IMG/VR virus record: IMGVR_UViG_2541047126_000026
Origin: a virus
Lineage: Duplodnaviria; Heunggongvirae; Uroviricota; Caudoviricetes
DNA length: 39,662 bases
Strand: one strand, 5' to 3'
Numbering within the stretch: the first letter of the stretch is position 1; every line of letters starts with the position of its first letter. Under the pieces are notes generated by a model. That model did no database searches. It was not told where the DNA came from and saw only the letters and a list, made by a program, of their open reading frames with translations. The position numbers and the translations under genes are program-made. This document shows positions 1 through 39,662 of the stretch, piece by piece.

Positions 1-738
1 TCACCCAATCTCTTTCAAACCGGTTTTAACAGTTTGTGGTTTTGGGTAAGGCTGGACTTTGAATAGCTTTGTGTTGAGGCGTTTTCTGGCCCTCTTGTTC
101 AGAAACCGGATGTAACGAAACTGTCGGAACTTATGAACACTGGCTCTGTCGATATTAGCCCTCAGATGTTCACCTCGTTGTCCGCCTCGTTTAATGGCAT
201 TCCTGCAAATCTCGTGATACCACTCGCCATCAAGTTCATAGAATGTTGATTCATGGCTGCCTACATAATCAAAATTGCTTGCCTGATACACGACACCAAG
301 ACAGCCACAACGCTCATCTGCAAACGACTGAACCCACTGTACCTGCGGATAAAGCTGTCTGATTAGCTTGAGCGCGTAACTGATTGCCCTTGATTCGGAG
401 TTTCTCGGCATACAGTCATGCAGCCATAGCCGGTTAAGCTCCATATATTCTCGGTTCTGCGTACCCGTTACGACGCGTGCACCACTGTTTGGGTTAAGGG
501 CGTAACCCCATTGCATTACGCCAACAAGTTCCCGTTCTGAAAATATGCCCAGATGAAGGTAGGAGTTATTTACGAAACGGTGGCTGTAATGTTTATTGAC
601 GATGACCAGTCTGGCCAGCCAGCAACTTATTGTCTCAACCCGCAACTCACGGGAGCCATAACCAACGATATTGTCGTTATAGCGAATAAGTTCAGGCGTG
701 CTGATGATTCGGGATGTGACTTGCTTTCTGTTCCCCAC
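1..738 (-). CDS. mom: Mom DNA modification protein
   Basis: 245 aa ORF; last gene of the Mu-ordered block, overlapped at its 5' end by a Com-like zinc-finger ORF; the sequence is consistent with Mom as I recall it. Confidence 0.75.
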
Positions 739-2087: not shown

Positions 2088-2125
2088 TCCCGCCAGCCAT
2101 ATCATGACCGGCGGGATTTTTTTAT
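2088..2125 (+). terminator. Hairpin plus T-run (CCCGCC...GGCGGG then ATTTTTTTA); loop is long, terminator-like on the plus strand only
   Basis: 6 bp GC stem with about 15 nt loop followed by a T-run; on the minus strand it is preceded by an A-run, so it does not look like the esterase terminator. Confidence 0.25.
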
Positions 2126-4161
2126 TCTGTTACCGCTTTTTTCACTTCCACCACAATGCTGTCAATCAGCACCGGGTAAGTTGCATTTTTTGTGATATCC
2201 GTTACGCGGAGTTTGTCCACCGGGAAAGTTCCTACTGGTGACTGCGTCAGGGTAAACGCGGCACCATCCTGACCATCAATAACCGGAATAACCTGAAGGC
2301 TGTTATTTCCTGCAAAACGGAAGGCCAGCGTATGCCATTCATTATCAAATGCACCAAAGGTTCCCAGTTTCTGGTTATTTGTTGCCACTTTTGCATTGTG
2401 GTACATCACATTCAGGTCTTTTGCGTCTGTCTGGATGTAGAACGATGCCAGCAGATTATTCCCTGCATCCCCTGTCAGGGTGACACCCTGCGGCAGAGAG
2501 GAAACCGGCCAGTAAAGCGCCATGACATACTGGTTTGCCACCAGGTCGCCCGGTACTTTAAAACGACAACTGATTAAACCACCATTTTTCAGCAGTTCAG
2601 CACCAGTACCGGCATCATGATCCAGATACCAGGATGATTTACCTGTTTCCTTGGTCAGTTTCATTGCCTTACCACCTGTGCCTCCTGCATCACTGATAAT
2701 TTCAGCTTTACCGCCAGCCGGCTCCCAGCCCTGGGCTTTCAGATTTCCTTCTGACTCACTGACACGATAAGACAGCAGTGTTGTGGTTACTGCTTCAGTT
2801 TCTGAAGGTGACGGCACTGGTGCTTCAGTTTCAGAAGATGGAACATCGGCTTTTACTGTGGTTCGCCCCGCATGAGTCAGAACTGCCGTGGCCAGACGGT
2901 CGGAAATAATCCCACGACGTGCCCATGAACTGAAATGGCTGGCCCGGTCCGCAGATGTCCAGGTGGCGGCACTGTTACGCCACGTTGAGCCGTAATAACC
3001 AATGGATTCAATATCCGGGTCTTCTGCCGGATTGTTGGTGGGTACATTCGCGTCATTTTCATCTGTCATTAATGGAACGAAATGAATGTTTTTATCTGTT
3101 TTGTTTTTGTAGCCGCCATAGATTGCCTGGTATGCCGGTTCATTTTTCTGTTTCCAGAAATACGTGGTATCGCCACAAATCCACGGAACGCCAGCAGCAC
3201 TGCCACCGGTACACTGTTCCGCCTGTTCAGCCAGGTCTGCGCGGAATTTTTCCACCATCGCCAGAAACAGCGCGGAATGCTCCGTCGGCTTCGCATCAAT
3301 ATCAAACTCGCCCTGCATCCACACCACAGCAAGCAGGCGGTTTTTCGGGTTCTTCGCCAGTGCCGCTTTTGTCCGGCTGATTAAGTCCTTATACAGCGGC
3401 TTATCCACACCCCAGCGGGCTGAGTCCTCTGAAGCACCCGTGCTGTCACTGTACGTGCCGTCAGCACCCGCCGTGAATGCAGAACCACCACGGCAGCAGG
3501 GAACCAGCAGAATCCCCGCATCTGCCGGAATAAACGGCAGCAGTTTTTTGGCAATGTGAAGCCCCTGACCCACGGTGCCATATTGCCCTTTAGCCACATC
3601 CGCTTTCGGGTGATTTTTTCCACTCATATCCTGCACATCATGCAGACAGTGGTCGGCCAGAATGATGTCGTTATACTGACAGGCTTTACCTCCCGGCGTG
3701 ACTGTACTGCGACGGGCTAACTGCATAATACGCGGTTCGGGGCGGTCATATGTCTCCGGCAGTGGCAGACCTTCACCGTAAGCCATACCGTTTGACTGAC
3801 CAGCAAGAACCACCACGTAATACCAGGAAGGGGAGCTGGAAGCAGTTTCATTTCCTGACGGACGGGTATGTGTTTCAGCATTATCCCAGTCTGACGGTTC
3901 AGCAGTGCCGGCAACATCAGCACTTAACGGAATGACCGCACCAATACCCGCTCCGGTAATTTCCACACTCGGATCACCGGATACTGGCCTTACCCACAGG
4001 CAATCCCGTGTATTAAAACTGATGAGACAGTCAGCAAATGTCATTCCTCCTTTTGTTTCGACCGGAGGAAAGGGAGCCTCAAGAAATGCCGCTGTACCAC
4101 CGGAAACTTTAACAGTAAAGTTTCCGGGCATTGATGATAGTTGAACCCATTTGGACGTCAT
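2122..4161 (-). CDS. Prophage NanS-p-like SGNH-hydrolase O-acetylesterase (N-terminal domain, esterase core, C-terminal lectin-like domain)
   Basis: 679 aa; GQSN motif in VVVLAGQSNGMAYGEG as in SASA/DUF303 sialate O-acetylesterases; extra C-terminal domain of about 250 aa; sits between gin and com where Mu has no gene. Confidence 0.65.
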   Translation of the reverse strand: MTSKWVQLSSMPGNFTVKVSGGTAAFLEAPFPPVETKGGMTFADCLISFNTRDCLWVRPVSGDPSVEITGAGIGAVIPLSADVAGTAEPSDWDNAETHTRPSGNETASSSPSWYYVVVLAGQSNGMAYGEGLPLPETYDRPEPRIMQLARRSTVTPGGKACQYNDIILADHCLHDVQDMSGKNHPKADVAKGQYGTVGQGLHIAKKLLPFIPADAGILLVPCCRGGSAFTAGADGTYSDSTGASEDSARWGVDKPLYKDLISRTKAALAKNPKNRLLAVVWMQGEFDIDAKPTEHSALFLAMVEKFRADLAEQAEQCTGGSAAGVPWICGDTTYFWKQKNEPAYQAIYGGYKNKTDKNIHFVPLMTDENDANVPTNNPAEDPDIESIGYYGSTWRNSAATWTSADRASHFSSWARRGIISDRLATAVLTHAGRTTVKADVPSSETEAPVPSPSETEAVTTTLLSYRVSESEGNLKAQGWEPAGGKAEIISDAGGTGGKAMKLTKETGKSSWYLDHDAGTGAELLKNGGLISCRFKVPGDLVANQYVMALYWPVSSLPQGVTLTGDAGNNLLASFYIQTDAKDLNVMYHNAKVATNNQKLGTFGAFDNEWHTLAFRFAGNNSLQVIPVIDGQDGAAFTLTQSPVGTFPVDKLRVTDITKNATYPVLIDSIVVEVKKAVTE

Positions 4162-20853: not shown

Positions 20854-20890
20854 ATTGCCTCCGTATAAAATATGAATATAAAATAAGCAG

Positions 20891-20973
20891 GCGGTCAGTG
20901 TACGCTTAACTGGTAAAGTCGGTGCCTGCCTCCGGGTGGATCATGTATGCGGGTTCGACCCCCGCCACTGACC
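20891..20973. other. Structured intergenic element between F and G: 9 bp inverted repeat enclosing a GCGGG-TTCGACC-CCCGC hairpin
   Basis: CGGTCAGTG...CACTGACCG with an inner hairpin that resembles a tRNA T-arm; no D or anticodon arms. Confidence 0.3.
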
Positions 20974-20974
20974 G

Positions 20975-34113: not shown

Positions 34114-34341
34114 TTAGCTGACTTGTTTCGCACCAACAGAACGGCATATTCCGCTGTAAACTTCTGTCGCACCTTCGCGATCAAGTCCGGCAGATATCAC
34201 CATTCGTGTGCGGTCATTAAATTCAAAAAGTAAATCGCCACATTCTTTATTTTCGGCCAGTGAAATCACCTTCACGTTATCGAAATTAACCAGGTAAAAG
34301 CGTCCGTAAATATCAGGAATATAAAATACCGCCATAATCAC
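34114..34341 (-). CDS. Small early protein at the Kil position (75 aa)
   Basis: Immediately downstream of B and the same size as Mu Kil (74 aa); positional inference only. Confidence 0.35.
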   Translation of the reverse strand: MIMAVFYIPDIYGRFYLVNFDNVKVISLAENKECGDLLFEFNDRTRMVISAGLDREGATEVYSGICRSVGAKQVS

Positions 34342-35270
34342 ACCTGTGAGAGTAATTCAGGGTTGGTATAAACCTCTTTAAAGGCCGCATTAATATGTTT
34401 TTCTGTCAGCGCCGCACCTTCACCGCTGGCGGTGAGCCACGCCTGGTTAAGCGTATGTGTCAGAACGCGTAACGCTCCCGGCTTTTCAGCGATAGCCTGC
34501 ATGACGGCCAGCTCGGCCTCACCACTGATACCCCATGCCCTGGCAATGGCCAGCACATCCGCCTTTTTGGCCTTGCGAAGTTGTTTTGTACGGGCAAGAC
34601 GGCTGAACAGGCGCGATAAATCATCAAAGGCGCGGCGTCCACCTTTAAACAATCCGCGCGGGTTACCAATAAGCACCATCCCGATCCCCGTGGCGTCCTG
34701 AATTGCCCGGAGTTGCTCCAGACCGTCAATACCAAGATGATCCGCCTCATCCACAATCACCAGTCCACGCGTTCCCATCAGGCGACGGCGGATGGCGCGG
34801 GATAATGCCCCTTTGTTCGCGCGGGTGTAATCAATCCCCAGCGCATCGGCCAGCTCCAGCAGACACTCCGTGACGCTGGAGTGCGCGGGTGACAGGGTGA
34901 TCATCCAGGTGTTTGGTTGCTCCTGGCAGTAATTACGGGCGGTGGCCGTTTTACCTACCCCCGGCACGCCCACAATGACGTTAATACAGCCCATCAGGCG
35001 AACCGCCTGAAACAGTGCGCGCAGCTCCTGAACTGTCTGCGTTTCCACAAACTGCGGCGGTTCCGGCAGTGCGCTTTGTTTATTCCAGTTCTCATACCAG
35101 GAACGCAGGGAAGCAGCCACAGCGGCGTTATCGCCTTTATATTTCCCCTTGCGGAAAGCCGATAATGTGCCGTCGGAAATTCCCGCCTCTCTGGCGATGG
35201 CATACTGCGTCAGTACGCCGCCATCAATAAGTTCATCAATGGTCTTGATTACATCGTTAATATCAGTCAT
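34338..35270 (-). CDS. B: MuB-like ATP-dependent target DNA activator
   Basis: 310 aa; Walker A GVPGVGKT; N-terminal HTH; directly downstream of the transposase. Confidence 0.9.
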   Translation of the reverse strand: MTDINDVIKTIDELIDGGVLTQYAIAREAGISDGTLSAFRKGKYKGDNAAVAASLRSWYENWNKQSALPEPPQFVETQTVQELRALFQAVRLMGCINVIVGVPGVGKTATARNYCQEQPNTWMITLSPAHSSVTECLLELADALGIDYTRANKGALSRAIRRRLMGTRGLVIVDEADHLGIDGLEQLRAIQDATGIGMVLIGNPRGLFKGGRRAFDDLSRLFSRLARTKQLRKAKKADVLAIARAWGISGEAELAVMQAIAEKPGALRVLTHTLNQAWLTASGEGAALTEKHINAAFKEVYTNPELLSQV

Positions 35271-35340
35271 ATTATTAACCTCTCATTTGATACCTTGTTT
35301 AATCAAATAACCTGAGTCGCCGCTCGGGTTATTTTTTATT

Positions 35341-37431
35341 TCAGGCCAGCGGGTCATTTTCTTTTAATTTCGCTTCGAGCAACTGCAATCCCCGCTGGAA
35401 ATTGCGCTCGTATTCTTCATCAGGCTCATCATCAACGGCAGGTTGCTGAACGGCCACCGTATTACCTACCGGGCGATAGATGTTTTCCAGCCAGGGCTCC
35501 TGCGGCTTGTGCTCCAGCACGTTGACAACCTCATCCTCGGCATCACGGATTTTTTCCTCTGCGCGTTTACGCATGCCTTTAAGGCGTTGCTGCTGTTTGT
35601 AGTATTCCGCGCTAACCGGGAAGGCTTCGCGTTTATTACCGTCCCATACCGCCTCGCAAATCACGCTGCCATCCAGGCGACGTACGGTAATTCGTTCGGC
35701 ATCATGAATGTCATAGCTGATAAGCACCTTGCGGCCATGCTCATCACGCAGCTCGGGCGCGTAGTAAATATTATTCAGCCAGCGTATTTCACAGCGTCTT
35801 ACAGGGCGTTCCACCATCGGCCGGAACATGTCCCGCAATTCCACATCGGACAGCCATTCAATTTCCGTGTCCTCTTCCGCCAGGCGTTTTTTTCTGAACT
35901 CCGCCGGGCTGTAATGCTTGCCGTTCGGCTTCACCGGTAATTCATCGTGCGGCCGGTTGTTGTACCACTCAACACCATCACGAATGGCATCAATCAGTTC
36001 AGACCAGGACGGTAAATCACGCATCGCTGACTGCTGCCGGGCGTTCAGCCGTTTGCCCTGTTGCAGGGCAGTAAATGCCGAGCGTAAATCGCGGTTGGTT
36101 TTGCGTAACGTCTCGCGATCTGCACCTTTCCCGAAATAGGTGCGGTATTTACGGGCTATGCGCATCGGTAATGTGCGGTTAAGCCGTTCGATAATGCCTC
36201 GTCCCTGCGGATTACCGGCAATCCCGGTCGGGTGATTAATCCCCAGTCGCGGCAGTATCCCCACAACCTCCTTATCCAGGATGTCGGCGGTTTCCCCGGA
36301 GCCGTTATCCGAGTAATACAGAAACGGTTTGCCGTGATGGCGAATGCCGTGCTGTATGGCACCGGCTACGGCGAAAACATTTTCAGCCAGGTCAAGGCTC
36401 CAGCCCACCACAAAGCGCGTGCCACCGTCGATAACAAAGGTCACTTCCGGTGCAAATGGCCGACCGTGAACCGGGTGTGCGCATTTCAGCTTCATGCCGT
36501 GACCGTCACCAATCCAGACATAATTCACCGGCATTCTGGACCAGTCGCGGCGCGTGAATCCCTCAAGCTGACGGTATTCACTGCCGGTCACCCGGCCTTT
36601 TTGTTTCACCACTTCCGGCAGTTTCTTCATTGCGCGGCGAATGGTGTCATAAGAGGGCATGATATCGAGCATATAAGGCTCATCAGCGTGCCGGAGCCGC
36701 CATTCAGCAACAAAATCCTCGTAAGCCTCGGTCATTGGTCGGCCGTTTGACTGGCGATACTGCGCCAGAAATTCGGGCAGCCAGTTAATATCTTCGGCTT
36801 TTATTTCCTGGCGTTTACCCGGTGCCAGTAAAAGCAGGCGTTCAGCGGCGTTCTGTGCCTTGTTAAAGGCCGCAATCCATCGCTTCAGCGTGATTTCACT
36901 CAACGCGCGGCTGTTTCCCTTTTTGGCGTTCGCCGTCTCAACCATTGCCACAATGCGCTCGTCCAGCTGTGAACGTGCCAGGTTGTCAACGATAAACCGG
37001 ATAGCCTTCGCGCAGCTGAAACCGGGTTGTTGCGCGACTTTCATCACTTCGCTGACGATCGCGATTCGTGCATCAGCCACCTGGCGCTGGTTTTCAGTCA
37101 GGGCATTGAGGCGTTCGACCATCAGTTGTGGTGATCCGCGATATGCCTCCACCGCATCAACCACGTCAGATGAGCGTCTGGCCTTTGTCACCACCGGAGC
37201 CGGTGATTCATCGGCTTTTTGCGTCATCAGTTGCAGGGCATAACGTTCACGTAATGCCTGCTGCGTCACTTCAGGTAAACAGTCGATGCTGTATTCAGTT
37301 GCTTTAGAGCCTGAGCGACGACGGGAACAACAGCTTTTCCCTTGTACGTAACGTTGTAATGCCTGGCGAATACCTTTTGTTGTAGCAGGCATTCCGGGCG
37401 CGCCAATCAGTTCTTTTGCAATGACATACAT
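35341..37431 (-). CDS. A: MuA-like DDE transposase
   Basis: 696 aa; N-terminal end-binding region, DDE core, acidic C-terminus; between ner and B. Confidence 0.9.
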   Translation of the reverse strand: MYVIAKELIGAPGMPATTKGIRQALQRYVQGKSCCSRRRSGSKATEYSIDCLPEVTQQALRERYALQLMTQKADESPAPVVTKARRSSDVVDAVEAYRGSPQLMVERLNALTENQRQVADARIAIVSEVMKVAQQPGFSCAKAIRFIVDNLARSQLDERIVAMVETANAKKGNSRALSEITLKRWIAAFNKAQNAAERLLLLAPGKRQEIKAEDINWLPEFLAQYRQSNGRPMTEAYEDFVAEWRLRHADEPYMLDIMPSYDTIRRAMKKLPEVVKQKGRVTGSEYRQLEGFTRRDWSRMPVNYVWIGDGHGMKLKCAHPVHGRPFAPEVTFVIDGGTRFVVGWSLDLAENVFAVAGAIQHGIRHHGKPFLYYSDNGSGETADILDKEVVGILPRLGINHPTGIAGNPQGRGIIERLNRTLPMRIARKYRTYFGKGADRETLRKTNRDLRSAFTALQQGKRLNARQQSAMRDLPSWSELIDAIRDGVEWYNNRPHDELPVKPNGKHYSPAEFRKKRLAEEDTEIEWLSDVELRDMFRPMVERPVRRCEIRWLNNIYYAPELRDEHGRKVLISYDIHDAERITVRRLDGSVICEAVWDGNKREAFPVSAEYYKQQQRLKGMRKRAEEKIRDAEDEVVNVLEHKPQEPWLENIYRPVGNTVAVQQPAVDDEPDEEYERNFQRGLQLLEAKLKENDPLA

Positions 37432-37432
37432 A

Positions 37433-37681
37433 TCATGACGCCTTTCTCATATAGCTCTTAACCTGGTATCTACTGGGCCAGATTTCTTCAGGCGATACCC
37501 CAAGAGCATCAGCAATTATTTGCTGATACGGTCGGCAAGGAGTACGTAATACGCTTTTCAGCGAATCCCTGCTGTAACCAGCCTTTAAAGATAAAGAGCG
37601 CAGTGATAAGCCAGCCATGTGTAAGCGCGCCTTGATGATTTCAGGCGGCCAATCGTGATCTGAAACTTCTCTTCTACTCAT
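37433..37681 (-). CDS. ner: Ner-like DNA-binding regulator
   Basis: 82 aa; matches Mu Ner as I recall it (QQIIADALGVSPEEIWPSRYQ); stop abuts the A start. Confidence 0.8.
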   Translation of the reverse strand: MSRREVSDHDWPPEIIKARLHMAGLSLRSLSLKAGYSRDSLKSVLRTPCRPYQQIIADALGVSPEEIWPSRYQVKSYMRKAS

Positions 37682-37871
37682 ACTTCCTCTATTCTAAAAA
37701 GTTACCCGCGCGGATATTCGTGCGGATATCTGCACGGGTAAATAATGCATCACTAAAAATACCAAATCAAGGTATTTTTGGTATTTTGGCTAATTTTTGC
37801 TTTTATCCTTATTTTTCAATTGGATAAATAGAAAGAAACCTTTCCTTAGAAAAGCACCAAGAGGTATCTTT
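37682..37871. promoter_or_regulatory. Divergent early/repressor promoter and operator region with repeated motifs
   Basis: Between divergent ner and c: GCGGATAT twice within an imperfect palindrome centred on GATATC (about 37709..37730); AAAATACC-n7-GGTATTTT palindrome with a second GGTATTTT copy (about 37758..37795). Confidence 0.5.
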
Positions 37872-38402
37872 ATGTCGCAGGGAAAAGAACCTGTTATTGA
37901 ACGTATTGGAATGCTTACAAAGCGCTACCCTTCAAGAAGTGCAGCTGCCAGAGCGTGGGGAATCAATATCAACACATTAAACAGCTATTTCAAGGGAGGA
38001 CAAACACAACCAGCCCCCAGAGAAAGTATCCTTATACGAATTTCTGAAAGTGAAGGAGTTAGTCTTGAGTGGCTTAAAGAGGGCAAGGGTGAATCACCAA
38101 ACGATGTTGGTATTTGTGGTAATTTTGGTTGTTCTGGTGATAAGGGAGATCAACTTACACAGATGCTTTCATTCCTTACGAAAGACGAACGAGAACAGTT
38201 AACCAATCTCCTTGCTCGCAAAGGTGTAGAGACGGTTCTGACACTGCTGGATAAAGAAAACCAGGATTTATTACAACTAGAAGGCAGGAAGCGCCTGGCT
38301 GCGTTGATGATTGTAGATATGCCAGACGATTGCGTCAGAGAGATTTTGGAAAAAACCGAGACAAGTAGGCAATCAAATCCGGTAGAATCTAAAGCGGGTT
38401 AG
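37872..38402 (+). CDS. Putative prophage repressor (c-equivalent); start at MSQGKEPV, track ORF begins 37797
   Basis: Only plus-strand gene of the element, divergent from ner at the position of Mu c; AAGAGG RBS upstream of ATG 37872; HTH-like stretch SRSAAARAWGININTLNSYFKG. Confidence 0.6.
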   Translation: MSQGKEPVIERIGMLTKRYPSRSAAARAWGININTLNSYFKGGQTQPAPRESILIRISESEGVSLEWLKEGKGESPNDVGICGNFGCSGDKGDQLTQMLSFLTKDEREQLTNLLARKGVETVLTLLDKENQDLLQLEGRKRLAALMIVDMPDDCVREILEKTETSRQSNPVESKAG

Positions 38403-38652
38403 TTTGGCGAGGCTGGCCCGTATGTTAGTTGCCATATAGATTTAATGAAGTTTTAAACGCTTTAAAAAGTTGAGATCGCAGTATCAAAAGTTTTGCCGAT
38501 TTTAGAATAAACGATTAATTATTGCACAATCGGTATCAAATAGACTTTAAGCGCTCATCCAGACATCACCTGTTTTATTTCAGTATCTTACAGGTGATTT
38601 CACCTCCTTTCACTAAAACCCTCGTTGGTATCAAATGATTCACCTGGTTACA
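38403..38652. repeat. Prophage left-end region with three GTATCAAA(A/T) repeats, candidate transposase-binding sites
   Basis: GTATCAAAAG at 38481, GTATCAAATAG at 38533, GTATCAAATG at 38628, about 171, 119 and 24 bp from the inferred terminus; terminal CA at 38651..38652. Confidence 0.5.
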
Positions 38653-39662
38653 TATTCTCGGCTTAACCGACCGTGCAACCTCAACACATTGGTTTCAACT
38701 GCCGTCACCACGTTCTCTGGAAAATCTGTCGGTAATGAAGTCTTCACGTTATCCAGTGCTGCCGGAATCATTCTGGCAAAGTCACTCAGGATTTCATGCA
38801 TCTGCACTTCCGGGAATCTCAGCACCTTTGCTGTCGCCAAAAAATGTCGCGGATAAATTTTATCGATTGCCGTTTTTTTGCCTTTGGATGCGTTAAGCCC
38901 CATTGCCAGTTTGAGATCGCTGATGTGTATTCCCGTACCGCCAAGGACCGGAAATGCTGAAATGATGTCGTAAAATGGCGTGAGTCGATAACTGCCGCCA
39001 GCCTGAATAAATACGGAGAAGTTTTTTGCATGGCCATCCGTTGCGCCAATCAACCACTGGAAGACCTGGAATTTCATAAAATCATAACGATCGCGAAGCG
39101 CCTCGCTGAACCCCATCAAAAAAGCCATGATCCGCGCGATGCCTGGGCCTCCATCTGATTCATATTTCACCGATGAAGGTAAACCGAATGTCTGACACAT
39201 ATCCTCCTGTGGCAAGCGAAGTAAAACCGTTCGCTCAGCATTCCAACGCCTGTCAAAACGTTCGACCGCTAACGCGCGCACATTTCCCGCTTTAATGATT
39301 TCTGCGTCCGGGACATTCAACCCAAGTTCTTTCGCCAGCAGCAGACAGTAATACTCATTATCAACGCTTTGGCTGAGATCGAGCGTCGCATTGGGCTGCC
39401 TGATTTCCCCAATCGGTAATTTAATGATGTGCGTCGTCGGCGTTATTCCTTTCGGAATGCACCAGTCATTGCCTATTCTGAGCAGTGCTGTCTTCTCCTG
39501 TGCGCCAGCAACCGAGATGCGAAAGTCATTTTCTTCTCTAATCATGCCTAGCGGGATATCTGCTTTATAAGCCGTTAATACTTCTTCAAGTCTGACTTCA
39601 GTAAGCTTTTCCCATGCCATTATCGGACGCGTTACGGTTTCGTCTTCGGGTATTAACGTCAC
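38640..39662 (-). CDS. hipA: HipA serine/threonine kinase toxin, 5'-truncated by the window edge, with altered last three codons
   Basis: 340 aa matching the C-terminal 340 residues of E. coli HipA as I recall it, except the end reads ...LSREYVTR where K-12 reads ...LSREYGSK. Confidence 0.85.
   Translation of the reverse strand: MTLIPEDETVTRPIMAWEKLTEVRLEEVLTAYKADIPLGMIREENDFRISVAGAQEKTALLRIGNDWCIPKGITPTTHIIKLPIGEIRQPNATLDLSQSVDNEYYCLLLAKELGLNVPDAEIIKAGNVRALAVERFDRRWNAERTVLLRLPQEDMCQTFGLPSSVKYESDGGPGIARIMAFLMGFSEALRDRYDFMKFQVFQWLIGATDGHAKNFSVFIQAGGSYRLTPFYDIISAFPVLGGTGIHISDLKLAMGLNASKGKKTAIDKIYPRHFLATAKVLRFPEVQMHEILSDFARMIPAALDNVKTSLPTDFPENVVTAVETNVLRLHGRLSREYVTR

Follow-up and report, generated by a model that had tools for sequence, protein, structure and literature searches.

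Three direct repeats at the left end of an Sp18-type Mu-like prophage are, with a probability of about 0.9 in our estimate, the L1, L2 and L3 sites of that end, where the DDE transposase of the prophage itself, a protein of 696 aa, would bind. We analysed a stretch of 39,662 nucleotides (the window), and sequence comparison identifies the element within it, which interrupts hipA, as an Sp18-type prophage of the kind found in Shiga-toxin E. coli. The prophage runs along the minus strand of the window, with its genes in the order c, ner, A, B ... com, mom. The features that matter here, with their strands, are the following.

1..738, minus strand: mom, whose stop codon is the first triplet of the window.
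34338..35270, minus strand: MuB-like AAA+ transposition ATPase, 310 aa (Phage-MuB_C, AAA_22).
35341..37431, minus strand: DDE transposase A, 696 aa; its N-terminal DNA-binding domain is of the Mu type, and it also has a Mu C-terminal domain.
36847..37059, minus strand: codons ~125-195 of A, a helix-turn-helix segment, the counterpart of MuA I-beta and the part swapped in nature between homologues P0093 and P0004.
37433..37681, minus strand: Ner-like regulator, 82 aa (HTH_35).
37797..38402, plus strand: c-like repressor; a shorter RefSeq form maps to 38402 from 37872 (37872-38402).
38479..38494, minus strand: L3, third putative site; core TTTGATAC at 38481-38488, nucleotides 165-172 from the terminus.
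38531..38546, minus strand: L2, second putative site; core TTTGATAC at 38533-38540, within CTATTTGATACCGATT.
38547..38625, minus strand: L1-L2 spacer, with three AGGTGA copies and an inverted repeat (38562-38573 / 38590-38601).
38626..38652, minus strand: L1, terminal putative transposase site, and left terminus; 5'-TGTAACCAGGTGAATCATTTGATACCA, core TTTGATAC at 38628-38635.
38653..38656, no strand assigned: TATT, the first four bases of hipA, presumed to be one copy of a 4-bp duplication.
38653..39662, minus strand: host gene hipA, interrupted by the prophage; 100% identical to O157:H7 hipA until 38653.

The left 300 bp of the element are 100% identical to those of Sp18 of O157:H7 Sakai, and gene order and sizes match as well. 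This near-identity in end sequence and gene content places the element in the Sp18 type. Sp18 has been predicted to be intact, with its DNA packaged (PMC2669165), and phages of this type occupy variable chromosomal and prophage sites, Stx phages included (PMC10132054). We saw the identical left end at many different chromosomal positions in Shiga-toxin E. coli. Sakai Sp18 sits in sorM, whereas the copy studied here sits in hipA, the toxin gene of the hipBA toxin-antitoxin pair; because the prophage is inserted there, hipA is broken in the source strain. The hipA junction of the window was found in none of 5426 complete E. coli genomes (no match covering at least 80% of the junction query).

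Homology to intact hipA ends at 38653, which puts the left terminus of the prophage at 38652. The sequence read inward from this point, 5'-TGTAACCAGGTGAATC, is common to seven independent insertions, every one of which has a different flank: those of the window and of Sakai, four on further chromosomes, and one within an Stx2c phage. The left terminus is thus 5'-TG. The original prediction had placed the terminus at 38652, and the end of hipA homology, the seven insertions and two empty-site reconstructions described below all agree with it.

Counted over the whole window, the motif GTATCAAAW occurs on the plus strand at 38481-38489, 38533-38541 and 38628-38636. The three copies are packed into 156 bp of a single strand, against a mean expectation of 0.40 copies per 39.7 kb window on both strands, and none of 100 shuffles reached four copies. 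Their starts lie 24, 119 and 171 bp from the terminus (38652 minus each start coordinate), so both the same-orientation repeats and the distances first reported for them are exact. On the phage's own strand, the minus strand of the window, the motif reads TTTGATAC and takes up nucleotides 18-25, 113-120 and 165-172 from the terminus, giving core spacings of 95 and 52 bp. A fourth copy, GTATCAAAT, was found between genes A and B (35285-35293) on the minus strand, opposite to the left-end sites. An internal-site role was rejected, since this copy shows no conservation in the related prophages L017, L019 and L020; it is probably a chance copy. Scanning the end region for promoters and terminators gave hits at chance level.

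Because the first triplet of the window is already the mom stop codon, the right end falls outside. A search for the right end within the window found none, and we took it instead from six other copies of the prophage (L001-L006); in Sakai Sp18 the right end falls 128 bp further than the point where the window starts. In the six copies this end has the form TATAGCGCGGCGATTTT-TTTGATAC-CGATTTGCATTTCA-TTTGATAC-..., and another TTTGATAC follows on the inner side. These three cores occupy nucleotides 18-25, 40-47 and 75-82 from the right terminus, with 22 bp between R1 and R2, and they are inverted relative to the left end, so that they point inward. The arrangement as a whole, with the right end supplied by the six other copies, is thus one of direct repeats at one end and inverted repeats at the other, and the motif expected there in inverted orientation is present three times. 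The core of L1 lies at the same distance from its end (nucleotides 18-25) as that of R1, and a 12-mer of L2, TTTGATACCGAT, is common to R1 and, in some copies, also to R2.

All six insertions whose other end was read finish 5'-TATAGCGCGGCGATT, read inward. The right terminus is 5'-TATAGCG (L001-L006), meaning that the transferred strand ends TA-3' as opposed to the canonical CA-3'. In several of the relatives compared (L009, L010, L011 and L017-L021), 5'-TA is found at both ends. The neighbourhood of the right end also varies in gene content. In some Sp18-type copies mom is replaced by a different gene, with the three right-end sites unchanged: in L006 the replacement (38179-39231) is annotated in RefSeq as a DNA cytosine methyltransferase, and in L001 a different, unannotated sequence (~1850-2900) is at the mom position. 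The DNA-modification module seems to be exchangeable.

The target duplication is 4 bp in all six of the other Sp18 insertions (gatg, taaa, ataa, agaa, ggcg and aatt). A prophage of a sister lineage, L021, likewise has a 4-bp duplication (ttca), and GenBank record LC727881 annotates one of this length. We rebuilt the empty sites for mhpD and ycaI by removing the element together with one 4-bp repeat; each matched the intact gene at 196 of 196 positions in thousands of genomes. These matches indicate that the termini are exact and that the duplication is 4 bp, giving precise ends with a short target duplication at independent insertions. A 5-bp duplication with a right terminus of TGTATAGCG fits L001, and is excluded by the other five insertions and by the two empty-site tests. 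In the window, TATT at the start of the hipA segment is presumably one copy of the duplication, as judged from the other insertions; its partner would fall beyond the window start.

We then compared the ends with those of phages whose transposases are related to that of the window. For three of them, transposase identity to the window protein and core positions, counted from the terminus, are as follows.

Yersinia vB_YpM_5: transposase 79% identical; left cores at 18, 122 and 164; right cores at 18, 40 and 75.
Yersinia Tongde: transposase 56% identical; left cores at 18, 124 and 165; right cores at 18, 40 and 75.
Klebsiella Kp4866-3: transposase 56% identical; left cores at 18, 88 and 130; right cores at 18, 40 and 74.

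The motif TTTGATAC is kept in all three phages (with a single-base change in three of the Kp4866-3 copies), in the midst of DNA that is not the same. In these phages and in Sp18, the terminal core lies at 18-25 at both ends, so that the terminal site is equidistant from the two cleavage points. An alignment of 24 sites revealed a strongly conserved A-TTTGATAC-Y-R and a weak AA six bases upstream, with nothing else conserved. Each site thus has one strongly conserved block of 8-10 bp, which counts against reading the repeats as transposase sites, given that the Mu consensus is in two parts and 22 bp long. More distant phages carry other cores in the same place. Pseudomonas VW-6B, whose transposase is 47% identical, has TTCTGGAC at 18-25 of its right end, the only end usable, since its record and that of Klebsiella ST405-OXA48phi1.1 are trimmed at the left. 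Its right terminus, TGTAGCGCGGCGA, is canonical and otherwise nearly identical to that of Sp18. SuMu (transposase 43% identical) has the core TTTTGCATA in the same register.

Motif and transposase are also linked by prophages in which both have changed. In a prophage found in Shigella and E. coli (L015, L016 and L021), the transposase is 76% identical overall to that of Sp18, with identity of 85-97% after residue 200 and of 37-45% in residues ~121-200. At its ends TTCAAGATA replaces TTTGATAC, and the left cores start at 19, 90 and 142. The TTCAAGATA motif is found at all three left-end sites in two lineages, and at six sites in the sole lineage for which the right end was read. The latter is represented by L021, a complete prophage with a related, though not identical, transposase: all six of its sites are TTCAAGATA, its right end keeps the 18/40/75 register, and its TTCAAGAT core is in the same register as the cores of Sp18.

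To extend this comparison, 120 database homologues were grouped by residues 101-210 of the transposase, and the motif of three groups was predicted before the DNA was inspected. P0004 and P0066, which are 64-66% identical to Sp18 in residues 121-200, each have TTTGATAC three times at the left end. P0093, 39% identical to Sp18 in the same residues, goes with three left-end copies of TTCAAGATA in the same register. Compared with each other, P0093 and P0004 are 33-40% identical within residues ~125-195 and 97-100% identical outside them, apart from two N-terminal windows at 87-93% and a divergent C-terminal tail from ~640. From their sequences, the pair appears to be in effect a natural domain swap, with the left-end motif following the exchanged segment. 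It had been suggested that the motif is unlike the Mu consensus and that the element probably has its own end-recognition specificity. The first point is borne out, as the repeats bear no resemblance to the Mu ends. The second gains support from the 22% identity of the transposase to MuA and from the fact that the motif changes together with a segment of ~70 residues, which would give the element a specificity of its own. The cassette alone may set this specificity.

The transposase matches HTH_Tnp_Mu_1, Mu-transpos_C and, weakly, rve in Pfam. It is 22% identical to MuA over the full length and colinear with it (hhalign probability 97.9%), and residues ~125-195 align with the helix-turn-helix of MuA subdomain I-beta. 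A structure model of residues 75-265 is of moderate confidence (mean pLDDT 68), and a Foldseek search with this model gave no significant match. The protein belongs to cluster P0001 (99% identical; 7044 member sequences); a scan of genome contigs with the transposase found only two loci. As in Mu-type transposable phages, a DDE transposase with Mu N- and C-terminal domains is adjacent to a MuB-like ATPase.

Elsewhere in the prophage, com lies just upstream of mom, and between the invertase region and com/mom there is a 679-aa gene (2122-4161; DUF6645 in RefSeq) at a place where Mu has no gene; it is possibly cargo. In other copies a 'tRNA-OTHER' is marked by RefSeq where the head-morphogenesis gene is followed by that for virion morphogenesis (17922-18002 in L003, corresponding to ~20854-20974 of the window). 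ARAGORN found no tRNA anywhere in the window.

The stretch between L1 and L2 is not itself a transposase-site repeat. AGGTGA occurs four times within 38566-38645 (three times in the spacer and once in L1) and 25 times across the whole window. In vB_YpM_5, Tongde, Kp4866-3 and L015, the spacer resembles that of Mu, CCGGGAGGA..TTGGAT..CGGGAT (CCGGGAGG...CGGGAT), and the Sp18 type of spacer is also present in the prophages of P0004, P0066 and P0093. A role in packaging or in binding a host factor is a guess, and the spacer may be a swappable module with such a role.

These observations suggest how the ends would work. Monomers of A would dock on sites of ~16 bp with the form AAnTnA-TTTGATAC-YR, three at the left end (18, 113 and 165) and three at the right (18, 40 and 75), all facing inward. 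The core 8-mer would be read by the helix-turn-helix of residues ~125-195, the counterpart of MuA I-beta, and a second subdomain presumably also contacts the six sites. As L1 and R1 are equidistant from the termini, a synapsed complex could set the DDE centres on each terminal 3' A. The adjacent MuB-like ATPase would then deliver target DNA, with joining staggered by 4 bp. Binding by the A protein, the contacts between residues and bases, and the number of essential sites are what we infer from these comparisons.

One alternative is that IHF or another architectural protein of the host binds the repeats and bends the ends, with no docking of transposase. Of the IHF consensus, WATCAANNNNTTR, the WATCAA part is present in the plus-strand core, GTATCAAA, and host bending proteins are known to act at the ends of Mu. 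However, the TTR part of the consensus is completed in none of the three copies, and the sister lineage has TTCAAGATA, which lacks WATCAA, at the same six positions, a change that accompanies the transposase and not the host. The fixed 18-25 register at both termini also suits a catalytic complex better than a bending protein. We therefore regard this explanation as very improbable, although the sites could additionally be contacted by a host factor, given the overlap of TATCAA in the core with the WATCAA of IHF.

Equally hard to sustain is the idea that the repeats are pac signals, or operators for the repressor or Ner. Mu does have its pac site near the left end, and the repressor gene of the window ends only ~80 bp from L3. 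A packaging signal, though, is needed at one end only, and the right end, at a distance of 39 kb, has three inverted copies of this motif as well. Repressor and Ner vary widely (40-71% identity) among phages that keep TTTGATAC, and the motif tracks the transposase segment instead of either regulator. Chance recurrence of an A/T-rich word, in a non-coding end that is itself rich in A and T, can be given almost no weight: the one further, unconserved copy inside the phage (35285-35293) indicates that single copies do arise by chance, but with ~0.4 copies expected in 39.7 kb on both strands, three were found in 156 bp of one strand, three more are present at the other end, and the positions are conserved across four phages.

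We thus favor the reading of the repeats as Mu-like L1, L2 and L3 transposase-binding sites, as first proposed, a reading to which the sequence evidence from both ends lends support. In itself this claim adds little, because sites of this kind are to be anticipated in a Mu-like phage and six have been attributed to Sp18 before. Transposase-site repeats in Sp18 are an expected feature of a known phage, and no new kind of element is involved. What may be new are the joint swap of cassette and motif, the right terminus ending in TA, and the duplication of 4 bp; text searches of the literature for the motif, or for Mu-like phages that duplicate 4 bp of target, gave nothing relevant. A broader interpretation, which we put forward tentatively and at slightly less than even odds, is that Sp18-type phages form a MuA-related lineage with naturally orthogonal pairs of transposase and ends, in which a ~70-residue helix-turn-helix cassette is exchanged, the stagger is 4 bp, and TA-3' is tolerated.

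Several uses follow from these results. For annotation, the exact left boundary is now fixed for a very common prophage of Shiga-toxin E. coli, whose transposase cluster holds >7000 sequences. Near-identical transposases with different end motifs would map DNA specificity to one small domain, and the P0093/P0004 pair could yield orthogonal tools for Mu-type transposition. The 4-bp duplication shows that members of the MuA family can differ in their target stagger.

The Mu consensus, YGTTTCAYTNNRAARYRCGAAAR, is a two-part sequence of 22 bp with an RCGAAA half-site. In the Mu sequence itself, CGAAA starts at 22, 127 and 167 from the left end and at 22, 44 and 57 from the right, the last of these inverted. 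The Sp18-type phage shares with Mu three sites per end, L1 and R1 at equal distances from the termini, L2 and L3 set off from L1 by a long gap, an R1-R2 spacing of 22 bp, a left terminus of 5'-TG, and the gene order c, ner, A, B ... com, mom. The spacing of the repeats had been said to mirror that at the left end of Mu. This holds for the layout, with a terminal site, a gap and two inner sites, and fails for the distances: L1-L2 is 105 bp in Mu and 95 bp in the Sp18-type phage, and L2-L3 is 40 bp and 52 bp, respectively. R3, moreover, is direct in the Sp18-type phage and inverted in Mu.

The phage also differs from Mu proper in the sites, the termini and the enzyme. In place of the 22-bp MuA consensus, all six cores are TTTGATAC, which is unrelated to YGTTTCAYTNNRAARYRCGAAAR. 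The termini are TG on the left and TA on the right, with 4 bp duplicated, as opposed to TG...CA and 5 bp. At 22% identity, the transposase is not closely related to MuA. According to a passage in the KS10 paper, Mu, FluMu, Pnm1 and Sp18 have six putative transposase-binding sites each (PMC2628397). The reference number given there leads to an unrelated entry, and the probable source for the Sp18 sites is Morgan et al. 2002 (J Mol Biol). The target stagger of Mu is 5 bp (PMC3362531).

Among other transposable phages, those of the D3112/B3 type from Pseudomonas have three 22-bp repeats per end (PMC4378225), and Burkholderia KS10, whose termini are not TG...CA, has four repeats of 15 nt (PMC2628397). 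In both cases the putative sites were likewise found as direct repeats just inside one end with mirrored counterparts at the opposite end, whereas the motifs differ and the transposases are ~30% identical to that of the window. The end sites of Tn7 TnsB differ in that they belong to a cut-and-paste, non-phage system with another number and spacing of sites.
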